This document shows, in pieces, positions 11,378 through 37,164 of a stretch of 53,660 nucleotides of DNA; within the stretch, counting starts at the first letter, position 1, and the number at the start of each line of letters is the position of its first letter. The position numbers and the translations under genes were made by a program. The DNA comes from an uncultured Bacteroidota bacterium (GTDB lineage: Bacteria > Bacteroidota > Bacteroidia > Flavobacteriales > TMED113), in assembly GCA_902520385.1 (NCBI GenBank), contig CABYOB010000004.1:1-53660 (forward strand), read 5' to 3'. Below the pieces are notes generated by a model. That model did no database searches, had not been told where the DNA came from, and was given only the letters and a program-made list of their open reading frames with translations.

Positions 11378-12007
11378 ATGGGACTAGTAGGCACTAAAGC
11401 ACCAAAATTTTCAACAAATGCTGTTGTAAATGGTGGAGACACCGTAAGTGATTTTTCATTAGATCAATTTATTGACAAGAAATATGTTATTTTATTCTTC
11501 TACCCTAAAGACTTCACTTTTGTTTGTCCATCAGAATTACATGCATTTCAGGAAAAATTAGATGAGTTTAAAAAGAGAAATTGTGAAATTGTAGCTTGTT
11601 CTACTGACACTGCAGAGACTCATTGGGGTTGGTTACAATTACCTAAAGATAAAGGGGGCATTCAAGGAATAACATATCCATTAGTTGCTGATACCAGTAA
11701 AACTATTTCTGATGCGTATGATGTATTAAATGGAGAATATGATTATGATGATGAGGGTTGTCTAATTGCTACGAATTCAATGATAGCTTATCGTGGATTA
11801 TTTTTAATTGACAAAAAGGGAATTATTCAACACCAGTTAGTAAATAATTTGCCGCTTGGAAGAAATGTTGATGAGGCTATTAGAATTTTAGATGCCCTAA
11901 TATTTCATGAGGAAAATGGAGAAGTTTGTCCAGCTAATTGGGAACCAGGAAAAGAAGGCATGAAGGAAAGTCATGATGGTGTAGCTGATTATTTAGCTAG
12001 ACACTAA
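11378..12007 (+). CDS. ahpC: 2-Cys peroxiredoxin (AhpC/Prx1)
   Basis: FYPKDFTFVCPSE and GEVCPANW motifs. Confidence 0.93.
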   Translation: MGLVGTKAPKFSTNAVVNGGDTVSDFSLDQFIDKKYVILFFYPKDFTFVCPSELHAFQEKLDEFKKRNCEIVACSTDTAETHWGWLQLPKDKGGIQGITYPLVADTSKTISDAYDVLNGEYDYDDEGCLIATNSMIAYRGLFLIDKKGIIQHQLVNNLPLGRNVDEAIRILDALIFHEENGEVCPANWEPGKEGMKESHDGVADYLARH

Positions 12008-12972
12008 ATTCCTAATTTATTTTTAACTCTTTGAAGGACAGAGGAAGCTATTTTTTTAGCTTTTTCTGATCCTTCTTTTAGTTTTAGTTCAATTTCCTCA
12101 GTGTTTTCCATTAATTCAGAATAAATTTTTCTTTCAGCTGAAAACTTTTTTAGAATTAATTCTAATAATGCATTTTTTGCATGTCCGTAACCAAATCCAC
12201 CATTTAAATAGTTTTTTTTCATATTTTCTATTTCATCATCGCTGGCAATTAATTTATAAATATTAAAAATATTGCAAGTATCAGGTTCTTTTGGCTCTTC
12301 AAGACCTAATGAGTCAGTAACAATTTTCAGTATTTGTTTTTTTAGACTTTTTTCATCAGCAAATATATTTATAGTGTTGTCGTATGATTTACTCATTTTT
12401 CTACCGTCAACACCAGGAACAATCATAAAATTTTCAGTTACTTGAGATTCTGGTAAAATAAGTGTTTCACCCATTAAATGATTAAACGTTCCGGCAATAT
12501 CTCTGGTCATTTCTAAATGTTGAAGTTGGTCTTTTCCAACAGGAACCTTATTAGCATCATATAGTAAAATATCAGCAGCCATTAATACAGGATAGGTGAA
12601 TAGACCTGAATTAACATCTGATAAATTTTCAGATTTATCTTTAAATGAATGCGCATTAGCTAACATAGGATAAGGAGTGAAACAATTTAAAATCCACATT
12701 AATTCAGTGACTTCAGAAATATCGGATTGTCTATAAAAAATATTTTTTTTAGTATCAAAACCAAATGCTAGCCACGCGGCTGCAGTAGCATAAGTATTAT
12801 GTTTTATTTTTTCGGCATTTTTTATAGTTGTCAAAGAATGAAGGTCTGCAATAAAAAAAAGAGATTCATTTTTATTAGATTTCGACATTTCTATAGCGGG
12901 CAGAATAGCCCCTAAAATGTTACCGAGATGAGGAATTCCAGAACTTTGGATACCTGTTAATATTCGCGCCAT
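12004..12972 (-). CDS. trpS: Tryptophanyl-tRNA synthetase
   Basis: TGIQSSG-HLGN, VPVGKDQLQHLE, KMSKS. Confidence 0.97.
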   Translation of the reverse strand: MARILTGIQSSGIPHLGNILGAILPAIEMSKSNKNESLFFIADLHSLTTIKNAEKIKHNTYATAAAWLAFGFDTKKNIFYRQSDISEVTELMWILNCFTPYPMLANAHSFKDKSENLSDVNSGLFTYPVLMAADILLYDANKVPVGKDQLQHLEMTRDIAGTFNHLMGETLILPESQVTENFMIVPGVDGRKMSKSYDNTINIFADEKSLKKQILKIVTDSLGLEEPKEPDTCNIFNIYKLIASDDEIENMKKNYLNGGFGYGHAKNALLELILKKFSAERKIYSELMENTEEIELKLKEGSEKAKKIASSVLQRVKNKLGI

Positions 12973-13062
12973 TGATTTCTTTTAATTAAATATAGAAAAA
13001 TGTTGTCACAAATAAACTTTATAATTTTATGAATTCATCAATAAAGTTTTTAATATTATAAA

Positions 13063-13359
13063 ATGAAAATTGATAAATCCACCGTAGAGCGTTTAGCAAA
13101 GTTGTCAAAGTTAGAATTTTCAGATGAAGAAAAATCTGAAATGGTTGAGGACTTTAAGAAAATGGTGGGTTTTGTTGATACATTAAAGGAAGTTGATACT
13201 GAAGGCGTGAAGCCACTTATATATGTTAATGAAGATATAACAAATATATTAAGAGAAGATGAAATTGGTGGAATGTTAAGTAGCGAAGATGCACTTAAAA
13301 ACGCACCAGATAAAGATTCAAGTTATATTAAAGTGCCAAAAGTAGTAAAGAAAAATTAA
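13063..13359 (+). CDS. gatC: Asp/Glu-tRNA amidotransferase subunit C
   Basis: LAKLSKL...VDTEGVKPL...LRED...ALKNAP...KVPKV signature. Confidence 0.9.
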   Translation: MKIDKSTVERLAKLSKLEFSDEEKSEMVEDFKKMVGFVDTLKEVDTEGVKPLIYVNEDITNILREDEIGGMLSSEDALKNAPDKDSSYIKVPKVVKKN

Positions 13360-13769
13360 CAAAACTCATTATAGGCAGCCGACAGATTTTCTGCGATAGT
13401 TTCTTTTAAATTACCCTCAATATTATGTCTTTCAACAAAGTGAACTAACTCACCATCTTTGAATAAAGCAATGGATGGAGAAGAAGGAGGATAGGGTAAC
13501 ATGTATGCACGAGCCCTTTCCGTTGCTTCTTTATCTTGACCAGCAAAAACAGTAGTTAAAAAGTCAGGTTTTTTTTCGTTTTCCAATGATAACAAAGCCC
13601 CAGGTCTACATGAACCGGCGGCGCAGCCACATATAGAGTTAACTAAAACTAATACTGTACCTTCCTTTTTATTTAACATTTCGTCAACTTGCTCAACGGT
13701 TCTTAATTCTTTAAATCCTGCTGAGGTTAATTCTTCTCTCATTGGTGTACATACTTCTTCTGGATACAT
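13356..13769 (-). CDS. BrxA/BrxB-family bacilliredoxin
   Basis: NSICGCAAG (CGC motif), TVFAGQD, PPSSPSIALFKDG. Confidence 0.9.
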   Translation of the reverse strand: MYPEEVCTPMREELTSAGFKELRTVEQVDEMLNKKEGTVLVLVNSICGCAAGSCRPGALLSLENEKKPDFLTTVFAGQDKEATERARAYMLPYPPSSPSIALFKDGELVHFVERHNIEGNLKETIAENLSAAYNEFC

Positions 13770-13771
13770 AT

Positions 13772-14227
13772 TTATTTTTTTTTATCTAATTTACGTTTTT
13801 TTTCAAAAAAAGATGTCAATAAGTAAGCACATTCTCCCATTAAAACACCCCCTTTGATTTTTGTTTTAGGGTGCATGATATTTTTATCAATTAAAAAAGC
13901 ACCCTCTTTTTCATCCCTAGCACCATATACAACTTTTCCAATCTTAGCCCAAAACAAAGCGCCAGCACACATTACACATGGCTCTAAAGTAACATACATA
14001 GTACACTCATTTAAATATTTAGATTGAAGGTAATTACAAGCTGATGTGATTGTAGTCATCTCAGCATGAGCTGTAGGGTCTTTTAATCTTTCACACATAT
14101 TATATCCCCTAGCAATAATAGTATCATTATGAACAATAATTGCACCAACAGGGACCTCATCTTCTTGAAATCCTTTTTTAGCCTCTTTCAAAGCTTCTCT
14201 CATATAAAACACATCCATATCTATCAT
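13772..14227 (-). CDS. tadA: tRNA adenosine deaminase / nucleoside deaminase
   Basis: EVPVGA, DPTAHAE, TLEPCVMC. Confidence 0.9.
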   Translation of the reverse strand: MIDMDVFYMREALKEAKKGFQEDEVPVGAIIVHNDTIIARGYNMCERLKDPTAHAEMTTITSACNYLQSKYLNECTMYVTLEPCVMCAGALFWAKIGKVVYGARDEKEGAFLIDKNIMHPKTKIKGGVLMGECAYLLTSFFEKKRKLDKKK

Positions 14228-14305
14228 AATTATAAATTTATGTAAAATAGGAACAAGACCTAATTTATTATCTCATTTTTGTACTTTTACAGCAAATAAT
14301 ATTTT

Positions 14306-16048
14306 ATGTATAGAACAGTAAATAACGGTGAGTTAAGCAAAAAAAACATTGGACAACAAGTTACAATGTGTGGTTGGGTTCAAAAATCTAGGGATTTAGG
14401 AGGAATGACATTTGTTGATTTGAGAGATAGATATGGAATAACTCAACTTGTTTTTAATATGGAAACAAATTCAGAATTATGCGAAAAAGCAAGGAGTTTA
14501 GGAAGAGAGTTTGTAATACAAATTGTGGGCAAAGTAATTGAACGTGCTTCAATTAATAAAGAAATGAAAACGGGAGAAATTGAAGTCGCTGTAGATCAAA
14601 TCATTATTCTAAATAAATCTAAAATACCACCATTTACTATTGAAGATCAAACGGATGGTGGTGACGATCTAAGAATGAAGTATAGATATTTAGATCTTCG
14701 TAGAGAACCTGTTAAGAACAATCTAATCCTTAGATCAGAGGTTGCATTTCATACTAGGACATATTTAAAAAATCAAGGTTTTTTAGAAATTGAAACACCA
14801 GTGCTAATTAAATCAACTCCAGAAGGGGCTAGAGATTTTGTTGTTCCATCTAGATTAAATCAAGGAGAGTTTTACGCACTCCCTCAATCTCCACAAACCT
14901 TTAAACAATTGTTAATGGTTTCTGGCTATGATAAATATTATCAAATTGTAAAGTGTTTTAGAGATGAAGATTTTAGAGCTGATCGTCAGCCTGAATTTAC
15001 ACAAATAGACTGTGAGATGGCATTTGTAGAAACAGAGGATATTTTAAAGACATTTGAGGGTTTGATGAAAAATATTTTGTTTGAAACAAAAGGAATTAAA
15101 ATTGATGAAGTGCCTAGGATGACTTACGCTGATGCCATTAGAGACTATGGAACTGATAAGCCCGACTTAAGGTTTGAGATGAAAATAATGAATTTAGAAT
15201 CAGTTTGTAAGGGTTCAGGATTCAACGTTTTTGATAGTGCTGAAACGGTACTTGGAGTTGTTGTTCCAGGAGGCGCAGAGTTTACCAGAAAGCAAATAGA
15301 TAGTTTAACAGACTGGGTTAAGAGACCACAAATTGGGGCAACTGGAATGATTTACTGCAAGTTTAATGAGGGTGGTGAAAACAAATCATCAGTGGATAAA
15401 TTTTTTGACGTAAGTGCATTAAAGTCATGGAAAGAAATTAGTGGGGCAAGTGATGGAGATATGCTTTTAATTTTAGCAGGAAAAAAATCAGTTACTATAA
15501 ATGCTATTGGAAATTTAAGATTAGAAGTTGCTGAAAGATTAAGTCTTAGGGACCCTAATTTATATAAACCAGTTTGGGTAACAGATTTTCCTTTATTTGA
15601 ATTTGACGAGGAAACAAAAACATATCATGCAATGCATCACCCTTTCACTTCACCTAATATTGATGATATGAAGCTATTAGAAACAGACCCAAAAATGGTT
15701 CGAGCAAATGCGTATGACATGGCGTTAAATGGCACAGAAATAGGAGGAGGTTCAATTAGAATTCATAATAAAGAATTACAACAAAAAGTGTTTAATTTAC
15801 TCGGATTTAGTGATGAAGAGGCACATGAAAAATTTGGATTTCTTATGGAAGCTTTTGAATATGGTGCTCCCCCGCATGGTGGTATAGCATTTGGCCTTGA
15901 TCGAATTTGTGCGGTGATTGCAGGATCAGATAGTATTAGAGATTTTATTGCATTTCCAAAAAATAATTCAGGTAGAGATGTAATGTTAGACGCACCTTCT
16001 AAAATAGATAACGATCAACTTAATGAGTTAGGATTACAAACAAAATAA
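14306..16048 (+). CDS. aspS: Aspartyl-tRNA synthetase
   Basis: [46 protein letters not shown]. Confidence 0.98.
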
Positions 16049-16769: not shown

Positions 16770-16774
16770 TAATA

Positions 16775-16893
16775 GCATCAAGAGTTACTTGAAAGTATGC
16801 CAACCGACCCTAACCAGGGCGGCGGTGGAAAAAAGATGTGAGGTGATCATCCTAAAACAATATGGTAATCAAATCACTATTTTTAATTGATGC
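16775..16893 (+). promoter_or_regulatory. SAM-I/IV-variant-like riboswitch (aptamer ~16775-16870 plus alternative-pairing tail)
   Basis: P1 GCATC/GATGT. J1/2 AAGAG. P2 TACT-TGAA-AGTA. P3 core CCAACC...GG with CCCT-AACC-AGGG. P5 AGG...CCT. 3' AACAATATGGT can pair with loop ACCA (pseudoknot). Downstream TTGATGC can sequester the 5' GCATCAA. Family call is by eye. Confidence 0.65.
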
Positions 16894-17292: not shown

Positions 17293-17649
17293 ATGAAATA
17301 TTCAAAAATTAAATCACCATTTATAAAAAAAAAATTAAAAAAAACTGTTTGGAAAAATCGAATTTATATTGATGATTTAATCCAATTACATAAATACATG
17401 ACTAAAGGAATTAATTCCTGGATTGCGGCAAGTCTTTTTTCTGAATTGAAATTTAAATATGAAGGCGAGTATTTAAAATTGATTGAAGAAGACACTAGGC
17501 TAAACCCAAATGAAAAAAGAATTATGATGTATCCAAAGCAAATACATGATTTAAAATTAAGAAAAAAGAAAATTATAAAATGGAAATTAGATGAATTTAA
17601 GCTTGAAATGTTATTAAAGAAAGATTGGATAAATTGTGGGGGGGGGTAA
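17293..17649 (+). CDS. Hypothetical basic protein (118 aa)
   Basis: ORF with AT-rich upstream region; no recognised motif; ends in a G9 tract. Confidence 0.55.
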   Translation: MKYSKIKSPFIKKKLKKTVWKNRIYIDDLIQLHKYMTKGINSWIAASLFSELKFKYEGEYLKLIEEDTRLNPNEKRIMMYPKQIHDLKLRKKKIIKWKLDEFKLEMLLKKDWINCGGG

Positions 17650-17791
17650 AATCATAATACAATGAAGGGATATTTATTAATTTTGAAATACGGTTATAGT
17701 TTTCTTCATTATTTTAAATATAGTTGTTTAATAAAATAGCTATAAAATAAAATTTAGTATATTATTTAAGAAATCATATTTATGATAATTA

Positions 17792-19231
17792 ATGAAAAAA
17801 TACTTTAATTTTGATTTAACAGAACAACAATTAAAGGTTTTTAATTCTTTAAAAATCTTTGTTCAAAACCACAGTGAAAAAGTATTTATTTTAAAAGGTT
17901 ATGCCGGCACAGGTAAAACAACCCTAATGTTTGGGTTAATAAAATATCTTCAAGAAATAAAAAAAAATTTCGATTTACTTTCATCAACTGGTAGGGCAGC
18001 CAAAATATTATCAGATTTAACAGGTCACCGAGCCTCCACTATTCATAGTAGAATATACACATTTAGTGATTTAAGTGATGATTTAGAGGATATACATAAG
18101 AAAAGAAAAAAAAACATCACAGATAATAAAAGTTTAAATTTATTATTTTCTCTATCACAAATAGATGCAGATCAGTCAAAAAAAAAAATTATATACATCA
18201 TTGATGAGTCATCTATGATATCTAATCAAAAAGATAAATCAATTTCTTTTGCTCAATTTGGGGACGGAGAGCTTTTAAATGATTTAATAAATTATGACCC
18301 AAACGGTAAATTTATATTTATAGGAGACCCTTGTCAATTACCCCCGATTAAACAAAAAGAATCCCCAGCTTTAAGCAAAGAATACATAGAGCAGAAATTT
18401 AATTTTAATGTAAAGGAACACATGCTTACCACAATAGTGAGACAGCAAGGGGTCAATAATGGAATAATACAAGCATCTTTAAATACTAGACGTCTTTTTT
18501 ATAATCCCCCTCAAATTAAATGGCCTAAGCTCCCATTAGGAAAGAATAATAATATTAAATTATTGAGTTCAGATTTTCAGTTAGCTAATGAGTATCTTAA
18601 AGAAATCAATGAAAATGGCACAGAAAATACTACTATTATTTGTCAATCAAATAGAGATTGTAAGGAGCTTAATAATTTTGTTAGGTCTAGATTATTTAAA
18701 GATACTTCCAGTATTCAAGTAAATGATTTATTATTAATAACTCAAAACAATCAAAAAGCAAATTTAGTTAATGGAGATTTGGTAAAAGTCTTAAGTATTG
18801 CCCCAAAAGAAAATAGATGTGGTCTTTCTTTTTGGGAGGTTCAGGCCCAAGAGTTATCATCTAAAAGGATAATAAATTCTTTATTAATTAATGATATTCC
18901 CTATTCAAATTCGACAAATATAAGTGAGGAAAAACATAAAGACCTAATGATTGATTATTATTTGAGAATGAAAGAAAAGGGAATTAAACAAGGAGATAGA
19001 TTATTTAAAGATAACATGTTGAAAGATGAATATTTAAATGCGATTAAATGTGTGTTTGGGTATGCTTTAACATGCCATAAGTCTCAAGGTGGAGAATGGG
19101 ATAAGGTTTTTTTATATATTAAACAAAAAATTTATGGAATTCCTAGACCAGGATTATTTCAGTGGTGGTACACAGCAATTACTAGAGCTAGAAAAAAATT
19201 ATTTATTGTAGATGATTGGTTTATTTCGTAA
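17792..19231 (+). CDS. RecD-like SF1B DNA helicase (AAA_30 / UvrD_C_2 type)
   Basis: GYAGTGKT, STGRAA, TIHS, IIDESSM, GDPCQLPP, VRQ, YALTCHKSQGGEW, YTAITRAR. Confidence 0.9.
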   Translation: MKKYFNFDLTEQQLKVFNSLKIFVQNHSEKVFILKGYAGTGKTTLMFGLIKYLQEIKKNFDLLSSTGRAAKILSDLTGHRASTIHSRIYTFSDLSDDLEDIHKKRKKNITDNKSLNLLFSLSQIDADQSKKKIIYIIDESSMISNQKDKSISFAQFGDGELLNDLINYDPNGKFIFIGDPCQLPPIKQKESPALSKEYIEQKFNFNVKEHMLTTIVRQQGVNNGIIQASLNTRRLFYNPPQIKWPKLPLGKNNNIKLLSSDFQLANEYLKEINENGTENTTIICQSNRDCKELNNFVRSRLFKDTSSIQVNDLLLITQNNQKANLVNGDLVKVLSIAPKENRCGLSFWEVQAQELSSKRIINSLLINDIPYSNSTNISEEKHKDLMIDYYLRMKEKGIKQGDRLFKDNMLKDEYLNAIKCVFGYALTCHKSQGGEWDKVFLYIKQKIYGIPRPGLFQWWYTAITRARKKLFIVDDWFIS

Positions 19232-21926
19232 TATTCTTGATAAATATATATGTGTTTTTCACCATTTCATACTCATCAATTTCTGGCACAGGCTTTTCAG
19301 AAAGCAAGATTCTCGAATAATGTTCAATTTTGTTTTTTAACGCCTCTATAGATTTAAATGAATCTTCAGGGAGTATTCCCTGTTTTTTTTCGTTTTTTAT
19401 AATTTCATTAAACCCATTTTCAGATTTCAATTTTTCTTTATAATTTTTTAATGTTTGTATTTCATCTTTTTTGAGTTTTCTATGATTTTCTAAATCTTGC
19501 CCATCTTTCTTAACATACAGAATTGGCATGATTAATTCGGTATTTTCTAAATCATATACTTTTTCAATACTATAATAAAATTCAATATCCTCATTGAAAC
19601 ACCCAAATTCTAGAACTTTTTCTAAATATTTTAATGCATTTTCCAAATCCTTATCAAGAAAATAAACAACAGCGCGATTATATGTTAGCATAGGAAATAA
19701 GTTAGTATACTCTTTAGATGACGGATCCCATGACTCCATTTCTTTAATTAGAAAGTCAAAAATTTCCTTGGCTAACTCTTTTTTGCGTCTTAGACAAATA
19801 AAACCGAGGCTGTTCAATGGATTGTCTAAAATGTTATTTCCTTTATTTCTATCAAATATTTTTTTTAAATCTGTAAAATATGCTTCAGGAAGTGTAAAAT
19901 CAAATCCGCGTTCTTTTCTTGTGTAATGGGTAATTAATTTCAAAACGAATTGCTCTATATACTGTTCTTCAAAAAATTTAACTCCAGAGTTTAAGCTTTG
20001 GTTAATTAATTCATCCGTTGTACAAATATTGGATTTAGGAATTTTATAAATTTTAAATGAAAAATTCGGATTTCTTTTATTAAGTGAAGACAAATATTTT
20101 TCTGTTCTTAAAGGATACGAATTATCAAAGTCTATTCCCACTCCTTGAAATGCTTTTTTTAATTCCGGATTTTTCAAATTAATATCATAGATATATAAAT
20201 CCGGATGGTTATCTATAGATTTATGTGAAATTTGACAGGTATATGAAACAAACTGCCATCTAGTTTTCTCTGCAAGTGTCTGAAAATCAATAGTTCCATT
20301 TTTCAGATTTTCAAAAAATTTAAAAAAATCAACAGGGACTTCTTCATCATCATAAAAGCCATCACCATTAAAAACCATGTTTTTGTTTTCTTCTGTAAAT
20401 CTGAATGTAGAAGCGGCGAAATTACAGATTGGCCTATTCGTAATTTCCTTCCAAAGATTTTGAGCTTCTTCACCACTATCTAAATTATACTTAATATGAA
20501 AAGGAGCGTTATATTTTTCCATATATTTTAATCTCAATTCTGCTTGTTCTTTTTTATTTCCTGTATAAACAACTCTATTTGAAAGGTTTTCTTCTTTTTT
20601 TTGAACAGGTGATTCATATCCTATTTTATTTTCCAGGGCAACTGTATTTTCTACACCTACATAATACAGAATATTATTTTTTACTAAATCTGCAATAAAA
20701 TTAGAAAAGGTTATTTTGTCCCAGCTATTTTCATTCGTAAAAAATATTGAATACCATGAAAAAATTTTTCCAAGAGGCGTAAATGGGGAATTAATAATAA
20801 TAAATTGCAACCACTTTCTTTGGTTTTCATCAAAATGTAATATTTTTTCAACTCTTTCAGGATTATGACTAAGTCCATCTGCCACTTCATTTTCATCACT
20901 ACTTATTTGTTCATTTACTACTTTGTCTAGCATGTTTCCGGTAAGTCTCATTTTATAACCATTTTCAGCTCCCTTGTCATACATAATTCGCCCAAGTTTA
21001 ATAATAATATCAATGGAGCCACTTGAGTAGTCATAAATTTCTTGACATACAGATGGCCAATTTTTAAAACATTTTTTATAATCACTTTCTTTCCATTCCA
21101 CCATGTTTAATCTAGCTTCAAAAAATGTTTTCACATCATCTTTGTCATTAAAATAATTTAGATTATATGTTTTAAAATCCCTTCCGACTCCTCCAAAAAT
21201 TTCATGTATTTTATGGTTATCTTTAATCCTTGGCCCGGCAAAAACGAAACCAACGCTATTTTCTTGATCAAGTATAATTCCTCTAATTATTTCTATGATA
21301 TCCTGAGAGTTATAAATATACTCTGCCTCATCAACAAGAAACACAATTTTTTTATCAACATATTCTGAGAATTTTTTTAAGTCTCGATTTATCGTGTTTA
21401 TATTAGGATTACTTTTTTCACCTTTGTGAACATATGCATTAATAAACTCAAAATTTACCTTCACGGGATTTCCGTAATTAGGATTAAATTCCTCCTTTTT
21501 CTTACTATCATCAGAGCCCGTAATGTCTTTATGTATTATTCCTGTCTGCAGTATGTTTTTTGAATCACGAAAGGCTATTCTTTTTTCTCTATGAAGATTT
21601 TTTTCTTCTAACAATTCAGTTAGTAAATCGCAGTATAGTTCTTTGTAAAATTCCCATGCACTTCTAGTAGTGCTTTTTGTTAAAGTTATTTTAATTGAAA
21701 TAAACCCAAGATCTAAACCCCAGTTTTTAATAATATTTATGAAACTAGTTTTTCCAACACCCCGGTCTCCTAATATTAAAAAACCTTTATTCCACTTTGA
21801 TTCATTTTTATTTTTTCTCATATCCTGTTTTATAGACTCTATTTGAGATCTGTGGTTTACTCCGGATATTTGTTCTTCCTTGTTGCTTTGGCGCTCAAAT
21901 GGATTGGGTTTTTCAAAAAAGTGCAT
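19221..21926 (-). CDS. STAND-like P-loop ATPase (901 aa) with C-terminal TPR-like segment
   Basis: NPF N-terminus, Walker A GDRGVGKT (21747-21770), Walker B VFLVDEAE, FVFAG, IYDYSSG helical motif, C-terminal YNRAVVYF...ENALKYLEKVLE. Confidence 0.7.
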   Translation of the reverse strand: MHFFEKPNPFERQSNKEEQISGVNHRSQIESIKQDMRKNKNESKWNKGFLILGDRGVGKTSFINIIKNWGLDLGFISIKITLTKSTTRSAWEFYKELYCDLLTELLEEKNLHREKRIAFRDSKNILQTGIIHKDITGSDDSKKKEEFNPNYGNPVKVNFEFINAYVHKGEKSNPNINTINRDLKKFSEYVDKKIVFLVDEAEYIYNSQDIIEIIRGIILDQENSVGFVFAGPRIKDNHKIHEIFGGVGRDFKTYNLNYFNDKDDVKTFFEARLNMVEWKESDYKKCFKNWPSVCQEIYDYSSGSIDIIIKLGRIMYDKGAENGYKMRLTGNMLDKVVNEQISSDENEVADGLSHNPERVEKILHFDENQRKWLQFIIINSPFTPLGKIFSWYSIFFTNENSWDKITFSNFIADLVKNNILYYVGVENTVALENKIGYESPVQKKEENLSNRVVYTGNKKEQAELRLKYMEKYNAPFHIKYNLDSGEEAQNLWKEITNRPICNFAASTFRFTEENKNMVFNGDGFYDDEEVPVDFFKFFENLKNGTIDFQTLAEKTRWQFVSYTCQISHKSIDNHPDLYIYDINLKNPELKKAFQGVGIDFDNSYPLRTEKYLSSLNKRNPNFSFKIYKIPKSNICTTDELINQSLNSGVKFFEEQYIEQFVLKLITHYTRKERGFDFTLPEAYFTDLKKIFDRNKGNNILDNPLNSLGFICLRRKKELAKEIFDFLIKEMESWDPSSKEYTNLFPMLTYNRAVVYFLDKDLENALKYLEKVLEFGCFNEDIEFYYSIEKVYDLENTELIMPILYVKKDGQDLENHRKLKKDEIQTLKNYKEKLKSENGFNEIIKNEKKQGILPEDSFKSIEALKNKIEHYSRILLSEKPVPEIDEYEMVKNTYIFIKNITK

Positions 21927-21930
21927 AATT

Positions 21931-22686
21931 TTATTTAATTTTTTCCTTTATTTCGTTTAGGAATTGGTTATTATCTTGTTTCCAAAGATTTATGTCTAGT
22001 TGATTTCCTGTAAAAGTTATATTGTTGTAATCTTTAATTAATTTTAAGAATTTATTTGCTTTATCACCTATTGTTTTCCGAAGAATACTTTCTTCGTTAT
22101 TGATTAAATTTATAAATACTGAAATATTTTTTGAAAGTCGAATATTATCTATTACAGTTTTAATTATTCGCAATTCGGCATGTTCAATTTCAATTTGTCG
22201 ATTTAGATAGCTTTCTAAATTGATTATATCGTTATTTATGGTGTTAAAATCTCTTTTTAAAATTTTCAATTCTTTATCAGAAATTATTCTTGAGTGAGCC
22301 ATATTATTTCTAATTGGAGTTATGTTTTCAATTAAAGAGATTAAATTTTTAATTTCACGTAAGTTTATCCCTAAACAATTTTCATTTATTTTATATATTC
22401 TCCCACCTGGACAACAATCTTTAATTAAGTTCTTGAGTTCCCCAAAAGAGAGCATATATATAAGATTAATTTTTTTTGCAGTTTCCCAGTCATTTTTTTT
22501 ACTCCATTTTTCTTTTTCTTCAATATCTTTAATGAGTGTATTTGAAAAAACACCCTGACCACTTTTATCCAAATCCCAATCTTTTCCTAGAATTTTATCA
22601 AATTTCTTAATAAGAAACTCTCTTAGACCTATTTCAAGCTTCAAAACATATTCATATGCTTGGATATTTTTTTTAAAAACACTCAT
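21931..22686 (-). CDS. Swt1-like HEPN-domain protein (putative RNase)
   Basis: LEIGLREFL, LSFGELKNLI and RxxxxH motif RNNMAH (22294-22311). Confidence 0.8.
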   Translation of the reverse strand: MSVFKKNIQAYEYVLKLEIGLREFLIKKFDKILGKDWDLDKSGQGVFSNTLIKDIEEKEKWSKKNDWETAKKINLIYMLSFGELKNLIKDCCPGGRIYKINENCLGINLREIKNLISLIENITPIRNNMAHSRIISDKELKILKRDFNTINNDIINLESYLNRQIEIEHAELRIIKTVIDNIRLSKNISVFINLINNEESILRKTIGDKANKFLKLIKDYNNITFTGNQLDINLWKQDNNQFLNEIKEKIK

Positions 22687-23138
22687 TATTTACATAAATA
22701 ATTAATTATTTCCTTCCAACTTGGAAACGCACTACTGCCAAATTGTATCCATTCCCCTTTAAATTCTTTAGCGCCATTCCATGGGTTATCATCAATTAAA
22801 TAATCTCCAAGTTGTAAGTGTTTATGATGTGATAGGATTAATTTTTTTCTAATATATGCCCCTAAGTTTTTCTCCACCCAAAGTCTTTTATGTGTCCATG
22901 AATCATAGTTATCCCATGATGGAGAGCTTAGAATATATACATCAAATTTTTTTATTAAAATCTCAAGGCTTTCTTTAGCGCCATTGATTAAGTCTAAATT
23001 TTTAAAAATATTAGGTAATAAATCAGGCCTGCCAGGGTATAATTCTTTTTGAGGGTGTTTTTTTGCAGCTTTATTAAAATCACACAAAACCCCATCCATA
23101 TCTACATAAATAATTTTTTTTCGAACGCTGGCTTTCAT
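22686..23138 (-). CDS. HAD-family 5'(3')-deoxyribonucleotidase (NT5C-like)
   Basis: YVDMDGVLCDF, ILSSP, KRLWVEKNLG, K..GDYLIDD, F.GEWIQF. Confidence 0.88.
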   Translation of the reverse strand: MKASVRKKIIYVDMDGVLCDFNKAAKKHPQKELYPGRPDLLPNIFKNLDLINGAKESLEILIKKFDVYILSSPSWDNYDSWTHKRLWVEKNLGAYIRKKLILSHHKHLQLGDYLIDDNPWNGAKEFKGEWIQFGSSAFPSWKEIINYLCK

Positions 23139-24877
23139 TATCTAACCCTAATTTTTATTAAAGATGAATTAATTGTGTTACTTAATGATCTAAATACAGG
23201 TTTTACTTCAATAGAGTCTCCCACATTAACTAAAGTTGCTAACTGACTCATTTCAATTTCTTTAGAGTAAGTTGTTGTTGAGCTTGATGAATCCTTATGT
23301 TTCCAGTTTTCTTCTGTCCAGATTGGTTGTTGGCTTGTTCGATTTGGAAACCCAGTTTTTTCTATTGTAATATCTCCTGAGCTTTTAGCATTTAGAGGCC
23401 ACGCAACTTGAGTTACTCTATGTCCTTCATTAAAATTAGCACAAAATTCTAATTCTATTTTTAAGTACTTTTTTGTTGGGTTACCTTTATTAATTACTGT
23501 AGCACTTTTTGTCAAACAAACAATATTGTCTGGTTTCATCATTAGCCAATTATTAATTGAGTTTTTACATTTAGTATTATTAACAGGGCAAGGGGCAATT
23601 AAAAATAATTGCACAAGTACTTTTCGTATCAACGATAAACTAGAATCATTATGAAATGCTCCAAATTGACCATCCCATTTTATAGGATCAACATACCCAA
23701 TCTCTTGCTCATATAAACTTGAACTAATCGGAAAAGTGTATCCATGATTCATTAGTCTTTTTGTAGCGCATTCAAATACATCTAACATTAATCGAAATAC
23801 TCCTTTTTGTTGTAGAGCCCCTAATCTTTGCCTAGCCTGATCCCAATAATGAGCTGGGTAAACAGAAATTAATGCATTTATATAATTTTCTAAAGTATCT
23901 ATAACATCTTGATTGTTATAATTGTAATCAAGAGTTCCGTTTTCAAACCATTTACAAAGGAAATCATTTGTTAATCTAAATACATCTACAATATCCATTC
24001 TAATTGTGATATCTCGCTCAATCATTGTTACCCTGCCCTCAGGTTGAACATTGGCCCATGGAGAGCTTCCAAGATTTAAACCAGAAGCAATTTCATAAGA
24101 CTTTAATCTAATTCTTCCTTTTCGTGTATTTTGATTATATGTTGGTTTAAGTCGGAATTTAGCTAATAAAAACTCTTTATGTAGTTTACTTAACTGAACT
24201 GCAGCAGAAGTAATTTCGGTAAATATTTTGGCAACTTCAGTCATGGTAAAGCCATCATTTTTACATAACCAAGTTGAAAAAACTTTTTCTTTATGATTGT
24301 TATTTTGGTCAGGAGAATAAGACATTCCTCTTATCCTGTGCTGACCATCAACAATAACAGCTGGTCGGTCACAATAATTACAATTTGGGCAACAATCGGC
24401 ATACCATCCTAATTTATCAGATCCATAAGTTTGTTCAACTGACCAATTACAATTTGGACAGTTTTGAAAACACCAATCAGCGGGATTTAAAGATCCTTCA
24501 AAAGTATCGGCCCTTTCTGAATCAGTTACATTTAAATCTTTAAAAAAAAGCACACTATTGTTTGGGCTAATAGGTCGTCCACTTCCTTTCCACCAGCTAT
24601 TAATTTCAGGGACACGGTCTATATTTAATTTTCTTTGCCAAGGAATATCTTGTTGCAAAAATAAATCAGCCATTTCTTTATTATTTCTATTTCCTATTTC
24701 AGGTGTTCTTGAAATTCTGTCTAATTCTTGAACAGTTAAAGAAATACAACGAATTTTACGCCCGTGCTGATCTATAAACATACCCCACAAATTTATTTCA
24801 TGTTGGTCAGGTTGTTCATATAAATAAATAGGCTCACTAGATGAATTAACAGGAGCTCGCCACTTAATTTTTGTCAT
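23138..24877 (-). CDS. DGQHR-domain (DndB/ParB-like) protein with Zn-ribbon insertion
   Basis: WQRKL, PNN, IVDGQHR (DGQHR at 24335-24349), AKIFTEIT; two CPNC motifs before DGQHR. Confidence 0.8.
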   Translation of the reverse strand: MTKIKWRAPVNSSSEPIYLYEQPDQHEINLWGMFIDQHGRKIRCISLTVQELDRISRTPEIGNRNNKEMADLFLQQDIPWQRKLNIDRVPEINSWWKGSGRPISPNNSVLFFKDLNVTDSERADTFEGSLNPADWCFQNCPNCNWSVEQTYGSDKLGWYADCCPNCNYCDRPAVIVDGQHRIRGMSYSPDQNNNHKEKVFSTWLCKNDGFTMTEVAKIFTEITSAAVQLSKLHKEFLLAKFRLKPTYNQNTRKGRIRLKSYEIASGLNLGSSPWANVQPEGRVTMIERDITIRMDIVDVFRLTNDFLCKWFENGTLDYNYNNQDVIDTLENYINALISVYPAHYWDQARQRLGALQQKGVFRLMLDVFECATKRLMNHGYTFPISSSLYEQEIGYVDPIKWDGQFGAFHNDSSLSLIRKVLVQLFLIAPCPVNNTKCKNSINNWLMMKPDNIVCLTKSATVINKGNPTKKYLKIELEFCANFNEGHRVTQVAWPLNAKSSGDITIEKTGFPNRTSQQPIWTEENWKHKDSSSSTTTYSKEIEMSQLATLVNVGDSIEVKPVFRSLSNTINSSLIKIRVR

Positions 24878-24881
24878 GACA

Positions 24882-25355
24882 TTAAATTAAAAAACATCTT
24901 AAAGCAAGTCCAATTCCTATTGAACCACCTTTAAATGATTGGTTATGTATTTTACAAATTAACAAAGAATTTTCATGCTCATCAAAAAATTTTGACAAAC
25001 TATCGGTGTACGATGATTTTGGTAAGATATGATCTTTTTCTAAACTTCCGATGAAATTACATTCTGGAAATTGACAGGTTCCATGGTTTTTGCCAATTAC
25101 TTTAGCCTTTTTAGATTCATCAAAAAGATTTTTTTTTTGTAAAAAATTTGTATGTTGAGTTATATAAAGATCACAAATATTATGAGCGGATATGTTTTGA
25201 ATATTGAACTTTTTTACAGATTCGAATAATTCATTTCTCATAGATATGTAATCTGAGCTTGTTCTATTGCTCAAAACAGATGCATTATATTTACTTAGCA
25301 CCTTGATGCATTCATAATCTAGTTTGAAACCGTTGACTAATGACTTGAACTCCAT
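24882..25355 (-). CDS. HNH endonuclease with Zn-binding Cys/His
   Basis: CQFPEC ... EKDHILPKS ... NSLLICKIHNQSFKG. Confidence 0.78.
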   Translation of the reverse strand: MEFKSLVNGFKLDYECIKVLSKYNASVLSNRTSSDYISMRNELFESVKKFNIQNISAHNICDLYITQHTNFLQKKNLFDESKKAKVIGKNHGTCQFPECNFIGSLEKDHILPKSSYTDSLSKFFDEHENSLLICKIHNQSFKGGSIGIGLALRCFLI

Positions 25356-26483
25356 TTATATTAGCGTTCCCCTCCTTTGTTGTTCAGCCTCAATAGCTTC
25401 AAAAAGAGCTTTAAAATTTCCTTTACCGAATGATTGAGCTCCTTTTCTTTGAATAATTTCAAAAAATAAGGTTGGTCGATCTTCTACTGGTTTTGTAAAA
25501 ATTTGAAGTAAGTATCCTTCTTCATCCCTATCCACTAAAATGCTTAGGTCTCTTAGTTTAATTATATCTTCATCAATTTCTCCAACTCGATCTAGTACAG
25601 TATCGTAATATGTTTTAGGGACATGTAAAAACTCTACTCCTCTAGCCTGCATTTTCTTCACAGTATCAATAATATTATCTGTTGCAATGGCAATATGTTG
25701 GCACCCGGGACCATTGTAGAATTCTAGGTATTCTTCAATTTGAGATTTTTTTGCACCTTCAGCGGGTTCATTTATAGGGAATTTAATCCTACCATTTCCA
25801 TTAGTCATAACCTTACTCATCAAAGCAGTGTATTGAGTAGATATGTCTTTGTCATCAAATGTAATTAAGTTTGCAAAACCCATTACATCGCGATAAAAAT
25901 CTTCCCAAACATTCATTTCATTCCAACCCACATTACCAACCATGTGGTCTATATACTTTAATCCTATTGGTTCTGGATTGTATGAAGATTCCCATTTTTC
26001 GAATCCAGGGAGAAAAATACCATTGTAATTTTTTCTTTCTACAAAAACATGAACAGTGTCTCCATAAGTATGAATTCCTGATTGAATTACTTCACCATGC
26101 TCATCTTCAATTTTATTTGGATCCATATATGATTTTGCGCCCCTTTTGGTAGTCTCCTCCCAAGCTTTTGTGGCATCATCAACCCAAAGTGCAATAACTT
26201 TAACACCATCGCCATGTTTAGTAATATGTTCTTCAATTACAGTATTGCCAGACATTGGTGTTGTTAGCACAATTCTTATTTTATCTTGAACTAAAACATA
26301 TGATGTTTTAGTTGAATCTCCAGTTTCCAGCCCTGAGTATGCTAATGATTGAAAACCAAATGCAGTTTTATAAAAGTGAGCTGCTTGTTTAGCATTACCC
26401 ACATAAAACTCCACGTAGTCTGTGCCCTTTAAGGGAAGAAAATCTTGTGCTTTAGGAAATATTTTTTTTAAATCTTCGCTCAT
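25356..26483 (-). CDS. hppD: 4-hydroxyphenylpyruvate dioxygenase
   Basis: HGDGVK, DHMVGN, INEPA, KSQIEEYL, QHIA, EIIQRKG..FGKGNFKALF; likely start is the ATG at 26483, overlapping the hmgA stop (TAATG). Confidence 0.96.
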   Translation of the reverse strand: MSEDLKKIFPKAQDFLPLKGTDYVEFYVGNAKQAAHFYKTAFGFQSLAYSGLETGDSTKTSYVLVQDKIRIVLTTPMSGNTVIEEHITKHGDGVKVIALWVDDATKAWEETTKRGAKSYMDPNKIEDEHGEVIQSGIHTYGDTVHVFVERKNYNGIFLPGFEKWESSYNPEPIGLKYIDHMVGNVGWNEMNVWEDFYRDVMGFANLITFDDKDISTQYTALMSKVMTNGNGRIKFPINEPAEGAKKSQIEEYLEFYNGPGCQHIAIATDNIIDTVKKMQARGVEFLHVPKTYYDTVLDRVGEIDEDIIKLRDLSILVDRDEEGYLLQIFTKPVEDRPTLFFEIIQRKGAQSFGKGNFKALFEAIEAEQQRRGTLI

Positions 26484-27640
26484 TATTCTATCCAAGATTT
26501 ATAATATTCTCCATCATCTAAATTCATGGCAGCTTTAGTCAATTTCAGTGGTCTGAAAGTATCTACCATTACAGCTAATTCTTGCGTTTCTTTTTGACCT
26601 ATAGATCTTTCCATGGCTCCTGGATGAGGTCCGTGAGGAATACCCGCGGGGTGTAAACTTATGTATCCTTTTTCAACATGATTTCTACTCATAAAATCTC
26701 CGTCAACATAATATAAAACCTCATCAGAATCTATATTACTATGATTATATGGAGCTGGTATTGAATCAGGGTGATAATCATATAATCTTGGGCAGAAAGA
26801 GCAAACGACAAAAGCGTCTGTTTCAAAAGTTTGATGCACAGGTGGTGGTTGATGTATTCTTCCAGTGATAGGTTCAAAGTCATGAATTGAAAAAGCATAC
26901 GGATAGTTATAACCATCCCAGCCCACAACATCAAAAGGATGAGAGCCATATATAACGTGATGCATCATGCCTTCTTTTTTGATCATCATTAAGAAGTCTC
27001 CTTTTTCATCTTTTGTAATTAAATCTTTTGGCCTTCTTATATCTCTTTCACAATATGGGGAATGTTCTAATAATTGACCAAAGTGATTTCTATACCTTTT
27101 AGGAGTATACATAGGATGAAAAGATTCAACAATAAATAATCTATTATCTTCATCATTAAACTCTATTTGATAAATAATTCCCCTTGGAATTAAAAGGTAA
27201 TCACCATATGAAAAATCTAAATTACCAAGCATTGTTTTTAATGTTCCAGAACCCTTATGAATAAAAATTAATTCATCTGCGTCAGTGTTTTTATAAAAGC
27301 TTTCAGTCATTGATTCACTGGGCGCAGCTAGAGAAATATGGCAATCATTATTTACAAGAATAGGTGTGCGACTTTCTAAATAATTTTTTCCCTTCGGTAA
27401 ATCAAAACCCTTTAATAGTCTCGATTTTATATTATTTTCAACTGCAATTTCAGGTTGCAGATTTTCTTTTTTTAGAACTTCTTTTACTTGTGTTGGTCTT
27501 TGTGTATGATATACAAGTGAAGACATTCCAACAAATCCAATTGTTCCAAATAACTCTTCGTAACGGTGTTTACCAGATTCGGATTTAAACACAGTGTGTC
27601 TTTTATTTGGTATGTCACCTAGTTTGTGATAAAAAGGCAT
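26483..27640 (-). CDS. hmgA: Homogentisate 1,2-dioxygenase
   Basis: HPFDVVGWDG, HQPPPVH, PYNHSNIDSDE, HPAGIPHGP; adjacent to hppD. Confidence 0.93.
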   Translation of the reverse strand: MPFYHKLGDIPNKRHTVFKSESGKHRYEELFGTIGFVGMSSLVYHTQRPTQVKEVLKKENLQPEIAVENNIKSRLLKGFDLPKGKNYLESRTPILVNNDCHISLAAPSESMTESFYKNTDADELIFIHKGSGTLKTMLGNLDFSYGDYLLIPRGIIYQIEFNDEDNRLFIVESFHPMYTPKRYRNHFGQLLEHSPYCERDIRRPKDLITKDEKGDFLMMIKKEGMMHHVIYGSHPFDVVGWDGYNYPYAFSIHDFEPITGRIHQPPPVHQTFETDAFVVCSFCPRLYDYHPDSIPAPYNHSNIDSDEVLYYVDGDFMSRNHVEKGYISLHPAGIPHGPHPGAMERSIGQKETQELAVMVDTFRPLKLTKAAMNLDDGEYYKSWIE

Positions 27641-31213: not shown

Positions 31214-32174
31214 TTTTTACTTAATAATATTGTTGTTTTTATTTGCTTGTACAAAAAATCAAAAAAACCAAAAACCAACAGTTAATAATGAAAAAGTTGA
31301 AAAGAAAGTTGATGTGCCTAATTTTAACGCGGACTCAGCTTATTTTTTTGTAGAACAACAAGTTTTATTTGGCCCTAGGGCTCCTAATTCACAAGCACAT
31401 AAAAAATGTGGGAATTATTTAGTTGCTAAATTAGAAGAATATGGAGCAAAAATATTTATACAAGAATCGGTTGAGCAAAGATTTGATGGTGAAAAACTTA
31501 ACATGAAAAATATTATTGGCTCATTTTCTCCAGATAAAAATGAAAGAATATTTCTATGTGCTCATTGGGACTCAAGGTTTATTGCTGATCATGATACAAC
31601 AAGAACAAAAGAAGCTATAGATGGAGCTAATGATGGTGCTAGTGGTGTTGGCGTATTATTAGAAATTGCTAGACAGGCTTCTATTATGAAGCCAGAAATA
31701 GGGGTTGATATTATTTTTTTTGATTTAGAAGACCAAGGTGAAGGTGGAACAGGTGACGTTTTAAGTTGGTGTATTGGATCTCAGTACTGGTCAAAAAAAC
31801 CTCATGTTTCTAATTATAATGCAGAATATGGAATTCTTTTAGATATGGTTGGTGCCCCTGGCGCTATATTTACACAAGAGGCATATTCTGTGGAATATGC
31901 CAAAGAAATTGTAGATAAATATTGGAATCAGGCTATAGAATCAGGATTTTCTGATTACTTTTCTTTTGAACAAACCCCAGGAATAATTGACGACCATTTA
32001 CCTATTAATGAAATATTGAAAATACCTACTATTGATATTATAGAATATGATCCATCAACTGAAAATCATTTTAATAAGTACTGGCATACTCACGGAGATG
32101 GTATGAATAATATTTCAAGGGAGACACTAAAAGCAGTAGGTCAAACTGTAATGGATGCGTTGTATAATGAATAG
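31185..32174 (+). CDS. M28-family lipoprotein, glutaminyl cyclase-like
   Basis: Lipobox [33 protein letters not shown]; start taken at the ATG at 31185. Confidence 0.85.
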
Positions 32175-32176
32175 AT

Positions 32177-36328: not shown

Positions 36329-36334
36329 GCCTAT

Positions 36335-36562
36335 TTAACTTTTCTTATTAAGAATAGTGTATAAAAATAATAAAGAAGCTATTCCTACAAACGTATTTTG
36401 CCCCAACTTGCCGATAGCTTTAGAAATATTACCAACTACATCCCAGCCAAGAATGGGATCACCAATAATTAATTGTATTGTTATTCCAAAACAAAGAAAA
36501 GAAAATGCAAGTGGTGTAATTTCCTGAATTATCGTGCTGACTTTTTCAAATATATTTTTCAT
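36335..36562 (-). CDS. Small membrane protein (75 aa), paralog of the neighbouring gene
   Basis: Two hydrophobic helices; GWDVVGNI motif shared with 36628-36852. Confidence 0.7.
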   Translation of the reverse strand: MKNIFEKVSTIIQEITPLAFSFLCFGITIQLIIGDPILGWDVVGNISKAIGKLGQNTFVGIASLLFLYTILNKKS

Positions 36563-36584
36563 AGAAAATCTTATTTTTTAACTT

Positions 36585-36609
36585 AAAAACCCGCCATAAA
36601 GGCGGGTTT
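36585..36609 (-). terminator. Intrinsic terminator between the paralogous genes
   Basis: AAACCCGCC-N5-GGCGGGTTT with a T run on the minus strand. Confidence 0.75.
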
Positions 36610-36627
36610 ATTAAGTAATAATCAAAA

Positions 36628-36852
36628 TTATTTTTTGATTAATGACAGAACAACAATCAGTGTTACTAGTCCAGCAAATCCACCGTTAGCGAAATCTGTA
36701 ACAAATCCTTGGATGTTACCGATTACGTCCATACCAGCACCCATTGCTTCTCCTAATAATACTTGAGCTACTATTCCTAGCCCTAAAAGCGACATGAATA
36801 AGCCAGCTAAGCCAGCTATAAAGTCGCCAAATGATTTAAATACTGAATTCAT
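36628..36852 (-). CDS. Small membrane protein (74 aa)
   Basis: Likely start at ATG 36852 (MNSVFK), because a TAAATTTG promoter element at 36880-36887 overlaps the longer ORF start; GMDVIGNI motif. Confidence 0.75.
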   Translation of the reverse strand: MNSVFKSFGDFIAGLAGLFMSLLGLGIVAQVLLGEAMGAGMDVIGNIQGFVTDFANGGFAGLVTLIVVLSLIKK

Positions 36853-37164
36853 AGCATTCGTTTTTTTGGTTAAACATGTCAAATTTATATAGAATGTGCG
36901 ATTTTTCTAAAATATCTACTATTTGATCAAAATATTTCGAAATAAAACTTTTTTCAATTTTACTTTTAATTTTATTTCATATACCTCAGTAAAATAAAGT
37001 TTTAGGAAATATTATTTGTTTTATTTATCAACATCAAATAGTGAATTAAAAAAAATGTGTATAAATATCTAAAAATCAACATGTTAAGGCAATATACGCT
37101 GCAAAAATAATAAGAAATAGAAAAATATCAGAAAAATGTAAATTTTAGTAGTTTAAATGTCGAA

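Follow-up and report, generated by a model that had tools for sequence, protein, structure and literature searches.

STAND defense proteins follow a logic of sensor, switch, and effector built around a large P-loop NTPase. Other immune systems pair a ParB-like sensor with a nuclease. In the excerpts of the literature drawn on here, the GmrSD and SspE systems use a DUF262 ParB-like NTPase that senses modified DNA and activates a DUF1524 HNH nuclease (PMC4619093; PMC12065111), and GmrS and GmrD may be separate proteins (PMC4619093). Domains of the DGQHR/COG1479 group are often joined to HNH, PD-(D/E)xK, or HEPN nucleases (PMC3632139). CTP, ATP, or GTP is bound by ParB-fold proteins, and both ATP and GTP are bound by a DndB-like protein (PMC12704722). 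The DGQHR domain itself is the signature of DndB, which regulates the dnd operon (PMC4507180), and the Menshen system NsnABC links a ParB-DUF262 sensor to an ABC ATPase transducer and a nuclease effector (PMC12065111). Here we compare with these systems a run of five genes found in a stretch of 53,660 nt (hereafter the window; contig CABYOB010000004.1 of assembly GCA_902520385.1) from an uncultured Bacteroidota bacterium (Flavobacteriales; TMED113). The predicted products are, in gene order, an HNH-like nuclease (P0001), a ParB-fold protein carrying a DGQHR motif (P0002), a deoxyribonucleotidase (P0003), a HEPN protein (P0004), and a P-loop ATPase with a TPR region (P0005).

A sequence-only reading of this locus had proposed a single five-gene defense system, with two merged modules as its fallback. 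It is the fallback that the recurrence data show. HNH and DGQHR genes stand together in 13 other loci that lack the other three genes, and HEPN and ATPase genes stand alone together in another genome. We conclude that the 6.1-kb cluster probably consists of two separate and rare two-gene candidate modules, P0001 with P0002 (module A) and P0004 with P0005 (module B), plus a phage-type nucleotidase, all residing in a variable hotspot, and that it does not form an obligate five-gene system. Below, G000 denotes the source genome, which is 63% complete, other G labels denote comparison genomes, and L labels denote fetched loci. Alignments and the profiles made from them are labeled A1 for P0002 (DGQHR), A2 for P0005 (ATPase), A3 for P0001 (HNH), and A4 for P0004 (HEPN).

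The independence of module A is evident from metagenome loci. Fourteen of these (L003-L016) encode a DGQHR protein that aligns over most of its length, and in 13 of them the gene immediately preceding it codes for a P0001 homolog; L006 is cut by a contig end about 100 nt upstream. Across all 22 DGQHR loci, not one open reading frame (ORF) matches the A4 (HEPN) or A2 (ATPase) profile, or P0003 by phmmer, at E-values up to 1. The genes found downstream from the pair are variable, and include a WYL regulator, an AAA_15 gene, and a type I restriction-modification (RM) system in L004, a BglII-like gene in L016, a NOV_C gene in L013, and convergent genes in L005 and L007. Because the pair recurs without the other three genes and is followed by such varied neighbors, P0001 and P0002 can be viewed as a self-contained two-gene cassette.

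The ATPase family of module B is rare as well. The P0005 family yields one true match among 400 other genomes of the order, and this match resides in G491, a member of the same order that belongs to another family. There, a HEPN homolog (A4, E 2.1e-59, 31% identity) precedes the ATPase homolog and overlaps its start by 14 nt. The ATPase homolog is an N-terminal fragment that runs into the contig end (A2, E 7.5e-21, 36% identity over 95 residues). Upstream of the pair there is a gap of 345 nt, followed by genes for AbiEii, a DUF6088 protein, and a tyrosine integrase, and no HNH, DGQHR, or NT5C gene is present in the 12 kb covered. Chance adjacency in G491 is unlikely because the HEPN and ATPase families are both so rare. 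More distant Swt1-like HEPN genes are found in other contexts, since none of the 11 loci fetched from the 27 phylum genomes with an A4 match (with some 8 kb to either side) carries an A2-like ATPase at E-values up to 0.01. The HEPN genes in those 11 genomes have MmeI-like RM genes, a DEAD/MZB helicase, and ClpB among their neighbors.

A stand-alone gene separates the two pairs. P0003 is a predicted 5'(3')-deoxyribonucleotidase of the HAD family, and this family assignment is solid: the protein matches Pfam NT5C (PF06941) with an E-value of 5.5e-15 and 56.1 bits, above the cut-off of 24.8, retains an intact HAD DxD motif (D13-M-D15), and matches the PHROG 5'-3' deoxyribonucleotidase family (E 6.9e-8). 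Relatives occur in four of 61 related genomes (G000 counted) and in none of the 15 genomes of the same family, and their gene neighbors elsewhere are unrelated. Relatives are also present in 90 phage records, at identities of about 50% at best; 49 of these come from Vibrio phages, large ones among them, and the phage proteins are annotated as 5'(3')-deoxyribonucleotidase. By these comparisons P0003 is a sporadic, phage-type gene that travels alone and is tied to neither pair. It may simply ride along, or at most would drain the pool of deoxynucleoside monophosphates (dNMPs).

The physical arrangement of the genes is as first described, with five co-oriented minus-strand ORFs separated by 4-nt gaps or joined by TAATG overlaps at the positions listed in Table 1. 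The ORFs are taken to be real genes because four of the five products have conserved relatives elsewhere. In gene order, the junctions read TAA-TGTC-ATG (a 4-nt gap), TAATG, TAATG, and TAA-AATT-ATG (again a 4-nt gap). Such an arrangement, with gaps of 4 nt or overlaps of 1 nt even at the module borders, would suit one integrated system in which the DGQHR protein and the ATPase sense, the HNH and HEPN proteins execute, and the nucleotidase tunes a signal or a nucleotide pool. The same view is favored by the finding that none of the five products is present at full length in the same-genus genomes searched. Nevertheless, the combination is met nowhere else, being absent from the 22 DGQHR loci and from the HEPN-ATPase locus of G491, and tight spacing is the rule in this DNA. 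When the four internal junctions of the cluster are set aside, nine of 23 same-strand junctions in the window still measure 5 nt or less, and the gap between HPPD and P0001 is 0 nt (the HPPD gene reaches to 25356, and P0001 begins at 25355). About 93% of the window is coding by a rough gene map. Tight packing is not distinctive at this locus.

The sequence-only reading had the HAD phosphatase tuning a nucleotide signal, but this idea finds no support: neither a cyclase nor another enzyme that makes a signal is present, and the nearest relatives of P0003 are phage dNMP nucleotidases. We therefore consider a single integrated system to be unlikely. The same low likelihood applies to a layered system, in which the two modules and a phage-derived nucleotidase are welded by translational coupling into one transcription unit. 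In such a system, the ParB-DGQHR and HNH proteins would cut invading DNA, P0003 would dephosphorylate the released dNMPs and so block their recycling by the phage, and the ATPase-TPR and HEPN proteins would trigger RNA cleavage upon failure of the first layer. If the cluster is instead two pairs and a nucleotidase, the five genes came together by chance as the island was assembled, and we give only a small chance to the idea that the co-transcribed block cooperates.

The GC content of the region (0.26-0.33) falls inside the range of the window (0.22-0.37). Scans of the window returned 76 promoters versus 70.5±9.4 in shuffled sequence and eight terminators versus 5.5±2.3, neither above expectation, and a search of sequencing runs produced no RNA run and only three DNA runs, with 5-6% word share.

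The five genes lie at a strain-variable site. The rhodanese-HgmA-HPPD genes on one side and the genes left of position 17650 on the other are conserved with relatives, and the stretch between them differs. HPPD is 96% and 88% identical in G004 and G006, respectively, and the ORF at 17293-17649 is 69% identical in G004. In this same-genus genome (L031, contig C9, 3258-11164), the site holds genes for a Z1-domain helicase of 918 aa, a DUF4420 protein of 337 aa, and a DGQHR-like protein of 779 aa, and continues with a C5 DNA methylase and a BglII-like endonuclease gene. The 779-aa protein is 25% identical to P0002 over 202 residues and matches no Pfam model, so a different ParB/DGQHR protein occupies the same hotspot. 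At the same site, G002 carries McrBC at a contig end, G006 carries only a Na/H exchanger, and the contig of G001 breaks. Because the flanks are syntenic and the content differs between relatives, the five genes can be placed in a variable defense hotspot of about 7.7 kb. The defense role originally assigned to the cluster fits this context of RM or McrBC genes in sister genomes, and it is from the context that we infer the function.

The cargo begins 0-6 nt from the HPPD stop codon in both G000 (25353-25358) and G004 (L031, 3251-3258). Within the window, no flanking repeats, tRNA, or integrase mark the island. These findings suggest a precise and recurrent insertion point at the HPPD stop codon without an obvious attachment repeat.

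Table 1. Features of the five-gene cluster and its surroundings in the window
Feature	Position	Strand	Description
P0001, HNH-like nuclease gene	24882-25355	-	157 aa; first gene of module A
P0002, ParB/Srx-fold DGQHR protein gene	23138-24877	-	579 aa; second gene of module A
P0003, predicted NT5C deoxyribonucleotidase gene	22686-23138	-	150 aa; stand-alone, tied to neither pair
P0004, putative Swt1-like HEPN gene	21931-22686	-	251 aa; first gene of module B
P0005, P-loop ATPase-TPR gene	19221-21926	-	901 aa; second gene of module B
RecD-like SF1 helicase gene	17792-19231	+	479 aa; convergent with P0005, same variable island
Strain-variable island	17650-25355	.	between the conserved ORF 17293-17649 and the HPPD stop codon
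HPPD gene	25356-26495		housekeeping gene abutting P0001

The cluster was described as set among housekeeping genes, which is true only of the flank facing HPPD. The opposite flank is occupied by the convergent RecD-like helicase gene, which was not found in any of the five related genomes searched. The 3' end of this gene overlaps the end of P0005 by 11 nt, and its product matches AAA_30 (E 1.3e-18) and UvrD_C_2 (E 9.3e-13). A match to the PADLOC model PDC-M16A has an E-value of 3.6e-122, although the aligned part is limited to roughly the first 485 of the model's 721 positions. The helicase gene is probably another cargo gene of the hotspot.

Beyond the island, a SAM-I/IV riboswitch aptamer (Rfam RF01725) is located on the plus strand at 16770-16869, with a score of 47.8 bits versus a gathering score of 41.1. 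It sits between a DUF554 gene and a minus-strand DUF6787 ORF, and the next plus-strand ORF (17293-17649) is 424 nt away. Two stretches at 31214-32176 (963 nt) and 36329-37164 (836 nt) are unusually long for having no ORF of at least 90 aa, and neither a tRNA nor an Rfam family was found in either one.

P0002, the second protein of module A, appears to be made of three parts. A ParB/Srx-fold DGQHR domain spans residues ~32-229 and carries an inserted element with four cysteines (C140, C143, C163, and C166). A helical domain follows at ~250-437, and the protein ends with an FN3/Ig-like β-sandwich at ~442-579. The NCBIfam model TIGR03187 (DGQHR) matches P0002 with an E-value of 2.6e-8 and 33.9 bits, short of its cut-off of 58.85, and TIGR04172 gives 14.3 bits versus a cut-off of 450. 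No Pfam model matches, and DUF262 is not found even at E-values up to 10. Across P0002 and 12 relatives, Q81-R82, the four cysteines, and D177-R181 (DGQHR) are invariant. The third motif reads F219-x3-T in P0002, where the GmrSD-family form is FxxxN.

The AF2 model of full-length P0002 has a pLDDT of 77.6, and that of residues 1-440 has a pLDDT of 69.9. When the N-terminal model was compared with known structures by VIA-align, only four chains reached a Z-score of at least 5, and all are ParB/Srx folds: PadC (6ryk_B, Z 6.6), KorB (Z 5.6), Pnob8 ParB-N (Z 5.2), and sulfiredoxin (Z 5.2). Scores below 8 can reflect a common arrangement, and the support for a ParB fold draws on the agreement between these structural matches and the sequence motif. 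The C-terminal 140 residues match the FN3-like chain 8pmu_A (Z 8.7), and the helical domain gives weak structural echoes of BrxU (Z 3.7) and SspE (Z 3.5). BrxU (7p9m_B, E 0.034) is also the top Foldseek match for residues 1-440. With the full model, the Foldseek matches are dominated by the C-terminal β-sandwich and tell nothing about the N-terminus. The A1 profile returned nothing usable from PDB sequences.

Representatives of the P0002 family are rare, with 13 other clusters among 5.8 billion, two distant matches in species-representative genomes, and 20 metagenome loci. The viral contig collection contains no relative of A1 or A2, and tblastn searches matched neither P0002 nor P0005 in plasmids and did not match P0002 in phages. 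Four metagenome loci (L017, L018, L020, and L021) encode distant DGQHR relatives of 684-769 aa that have N-terminal extensions of 190-290 aa, weak mid-protein matches to Pfam DndB, and no P0001-like gene upstream. At L004, the HNH-DGQHR pair is followed at 11778-15343 by genes for a WYL/WCX regulator, an AAA_15/AAA_21 ATPase (508 aa), and an unknown protein of 332 aa, and a complete type I RM system comes next, creating a dense defense island.

The partner protein P0001 has a helical N-terminal region of about 90 aa and an HNH-like (His-Me finger) nuclease motif. Ten residues are invariant among the 10 sequences of A3 (C94, C99, D108, H109, P112, N129, C134, H137, N138, and K142), and the resulting C..C..DH..N..C..HN pattern, as read from the alignment, is typical of zinc-bound His-Me finger nucleases. 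Profile matches are weak, and include Pfam HNH_4 (E 0.12), the PHROG HNH endonuclease family (E 0.041), and PADLOC PDC-M01B (E 1.3e-4). Among the 10 members of A3, HNH_4, HNH, and HNH_5 are each matched by a single member at E-values of 0.12-0.18, and none of the 10 matches DUF1524 in Pfam. Searching PDB sequences with A3 gave nothing usable, the top match being Cas9 (E 0.63). A complex prediction for P0001 and P0002 (from A1 and A3) scored 0.00 against a mark of 0.32, giving no verdict in either direction.

GmrSD, BrxU, and SspE, a family that includes type IV restriction and a PT-sensing nickase, are among the described systems closest to module A. The likenesses are a probable ParB/Srx fold with QR and DGxxR motifs, a helical domain that follows, and a putative partner of the HNH type. 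However, the motif is DGQHR in P0002 and DGQQR in these proteins, neither DUF262 nor DUF1524 is matched in Pfam, and the nuclease gene of module A comes first and encodes only 157 aa. The four-cysteine insert and the FN3-like C-terminus are found in none of the excerpted descriptions of GmrSD, BrxU, and SspE. Menshen resembles module A in the proposed logic of a ParB-like sensor and a nuclease effector, and in having a helical DNA-binding domain after the ParB domain. In contrast, the window contains neither an NsnB-like ATPase of the AAA_15/DUF3696 type nor an inPIN-type NsnC, and no Pfam match to AAA_15 or DUF3696 was found in any of the five proteins. The ATPase that is present, P0005, is of the AAA_22/AAA_16 type and belongs to the other pair. 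No PADLOC Menshen model matches any of the five at E-values up to 10.

A quite different role for module A is suggested by its likeness to DndB. P0002 has both the DGQHR pentapeptide and the QR pair, and its distant relatives match Pfam DndB (PF14072) weakly, with E-values from 1.1e-5 to 1.6e-3. Given that DGQHR is the signature of this dnd-operon regulator in the excerpted source (PMC4507180), module A might be a DndB-like regulator, an accessory to DNA modification, or a mobile HNH cassette of selfish nature, and the genes of the island might have no defense role. This explanation encounters several difficulties. P0002 falls under the family cut-offs, and its constant partner is an HNH gene rather than a dnd gene. 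DndC and DndD were not found in G000, although their absence is not proven because this genome is only 63% complete. No dnd-like neighbor was seen in the annotated DGQHR loci, and no gene for DNA modification regularly adjoins the pair in the other annotated loci. The neighbors are RM, WYL, and Abi-type genes, the site is a defense hotspot, and the window offers none of the repeats, tRNAs, or integrases that would signal mobility. Overall, we regard a regulatory, accessory, or selfish role as improbable. The sequence-only reading was correct that no methyltransferase or dnd gene accompanies module A. Type IV-like discrimination, or some other form that is not based on methylation, is most likely for this reason.

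P0004, the first protein of module B, carries in all 20 aligned sequences the RNxxAH motif (R126-H131, an Rx4H motif) of the HEPN type. E18, R22, W37, Y77, R126, N127, A130, and H131 are invariant in the same 20 sequences. Two Pfam families are matched below their cut-offs, Abi_2 with an E-value of 1.2e-3 (19.6 bits; cut-off 25.6) and HEPN_Swt1 with an E-value of 0.067 (13.9 bits; cut-off 27.5). P0004 also matches PADLOC PDC-M34B (E 5.5e-6), its nearest Atlas clusters carry HEPN_Swt1 (score 0.94), and an exhaustive HMMER search found 23 distant relatives. One A4 match, in L083 (E 4.5e-17), passes the Pfam HEPN_Swt1 threshold (E 1.4e-13, 51.6 bits). P0004 can thus be described as a putative Swt1-like HEPN protein that may serve as an RNase effector.

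P0005 has a Walker A motif (G53-T60), a Walker B motif (D199-E200), a long middle region, and a C-terminal TPR at residues 749-773. Its Pfam matches are sub-threshold: AAA_22 (E 6.7e-5, 23.6 bits versus 27), TPR_1 (E 3.8e-4), and nSTAND3 (E 0.038). There are 13 distant homologs of about 800 aa (one has 601 aa), some of which carry AAA_22, AAA_16, or TPR_12, and both Walker motifs are invariant in the 13 sequences of A2. Atlas neighbors are ATP-binding and TPR clusters, and searching PDB sequences with A2 gave nothing usable, with a kinesin-light-chain TPR as the best match (E 0.004). As a single-sequence query, P0005 matched nothing in 400 other genomes of the phylum, and in the same genomes the matches of the A2 profile were all short and confined to P-loop or TPR segments, the best of them covering 74 profile positions (E 2.1e-7). 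P0005 is a putative STAND-like sensor. It resembles the NLR-like Avs proteins in being a large P-loop NTPase with a C-terminal TPR that stands beside a putative HEPN effector. Unlike in Avs proteins, the effector of module B is encoded by a separate gene and is not a fused N-terminal domain, and P0005 is below the STAND and Avs thresholds.

HEPN proteins are common toxins of toxin-antitoxin (TA) and abortive infection (Abi) systems, and P0004 has its weak Abi_2 match. Moreover, the G491 pair adjoins an AbiE TA module on an integrase-bearing element. Module B could on these grounds be a regulatory or TA-like pair in which the ATPase restrains a HEPN toxin and there is no dedicated phage sensor. 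An ATPase-TPR protein of 900 aa is far larger than known antitoxins, however, and the invariance of its Walker motifs across 13 sequences suggests an active switch. We consider this explanation to be very unlikely as an alternative, and it partly overlaps with the reading of module B as a defense pair because abortive infection and TA behavior are not exclusive.

The sequence-only reading recognized no named system at this locus, and in a PADLOC v2 check no system model matches either pair. P0002, P0003, and P0005 match no model below an E-value of 0.01. When E-values up to 10 are allowed, P0002 and P0005 have single matches at chance level (AbiEi, 0.014, and an RtcR-type model, 0.036, respectively), and P0003 has none. 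Membership in PDC-M01 or PDC-M34 was considered and rejected because only the B components are matched; P0002 and P0005 match no A model at E-values up to 10. Full-text searches of one open-access library found no description of either pair.

Several observations weigh against the view that the cluster holds two defense modules of the types outlined above. The HNH call for P0001 is under every curated threshold and rests on motifs and weak profiles, and the STAND-like call for P0005 is likewise below all curated thresholds. For P0002, the Z-scores supporting a ParB fold (5.2-7.7) fall in the range where a common arrangement is possible. None of the five proteins matches a PADLOC model of the GmrSD, SspE, Menshen, or Avs type. 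For module B, independent recurrence comes from one genome, G491, where the ATPase is truncated by the contig end. Finally, the TAATG overlaps span the module borders, at P0002|P0003 and at P0003|P0004, and such coupling means that the five genes are probably co-transcribed here and could cooperate. The domain calls made at the outset were broadly right. NT5C is solid, DGQHR is backed by TIGR03187 and the ParB model, and HEPN is backed by the RNxxAH motif in 20 of 20 sequences, whereas HNH and STAND-like remain sub-threshold.

The data themselves give the order of the genes, their conserved motifs, support for a ParB fold, the recurrence of each pair apart from the other, and the variable nature of the site. 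From the comparisons with described systems we infer the biochemical activities, the physical partnership within each pair, and an anti-phage role. By analogy, module A may be a split and divergent relative of systems that use GmrSD/SspE logic. As with GmrSD, BrxU, and SspE, P0002 would bind DNA and a nucleotide triphosphate, and would recognize in invading DNA a feature that may be a modified base or backbone. It would then license the HNH protein P0001 to nick or cut this DNA. Module B may be a pair formed by an NLR-like ATPase-TPR sensor and a HEPN RNase. Like NLR/Avs-type proteins, P0005 would act as a sensor or switch, and P0004 would be the RNase effector whose action leads to growth arrest or abortive infection.

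The locus offers a caution for genome scanning, because gap-free packing in compact genomes is no proof of functional unity. It also reveals a dedicated hotspot just behind the HPPD stop codon of a streamlined marine genome (about 1.2 Mb), in which entire sets of defense genes are exchanged between sister strains. If confirmed as defense systems, each pair would represent a rare new branch of known immune logic, and if the layered arrangement were true, each pair would also be a new defense family by itself. Module B would be an NLR-like ATPase-TPR protein with a separate HEPN effector. Module A would be a split cassette of ParB sensor and HNH nuclease that bears an FN3-like C-terminus and an unusual insert with cysteines. 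Such a cassette could reveal what the ParB/DGQHR fold recognizes in the absence of an accompanying modification system.

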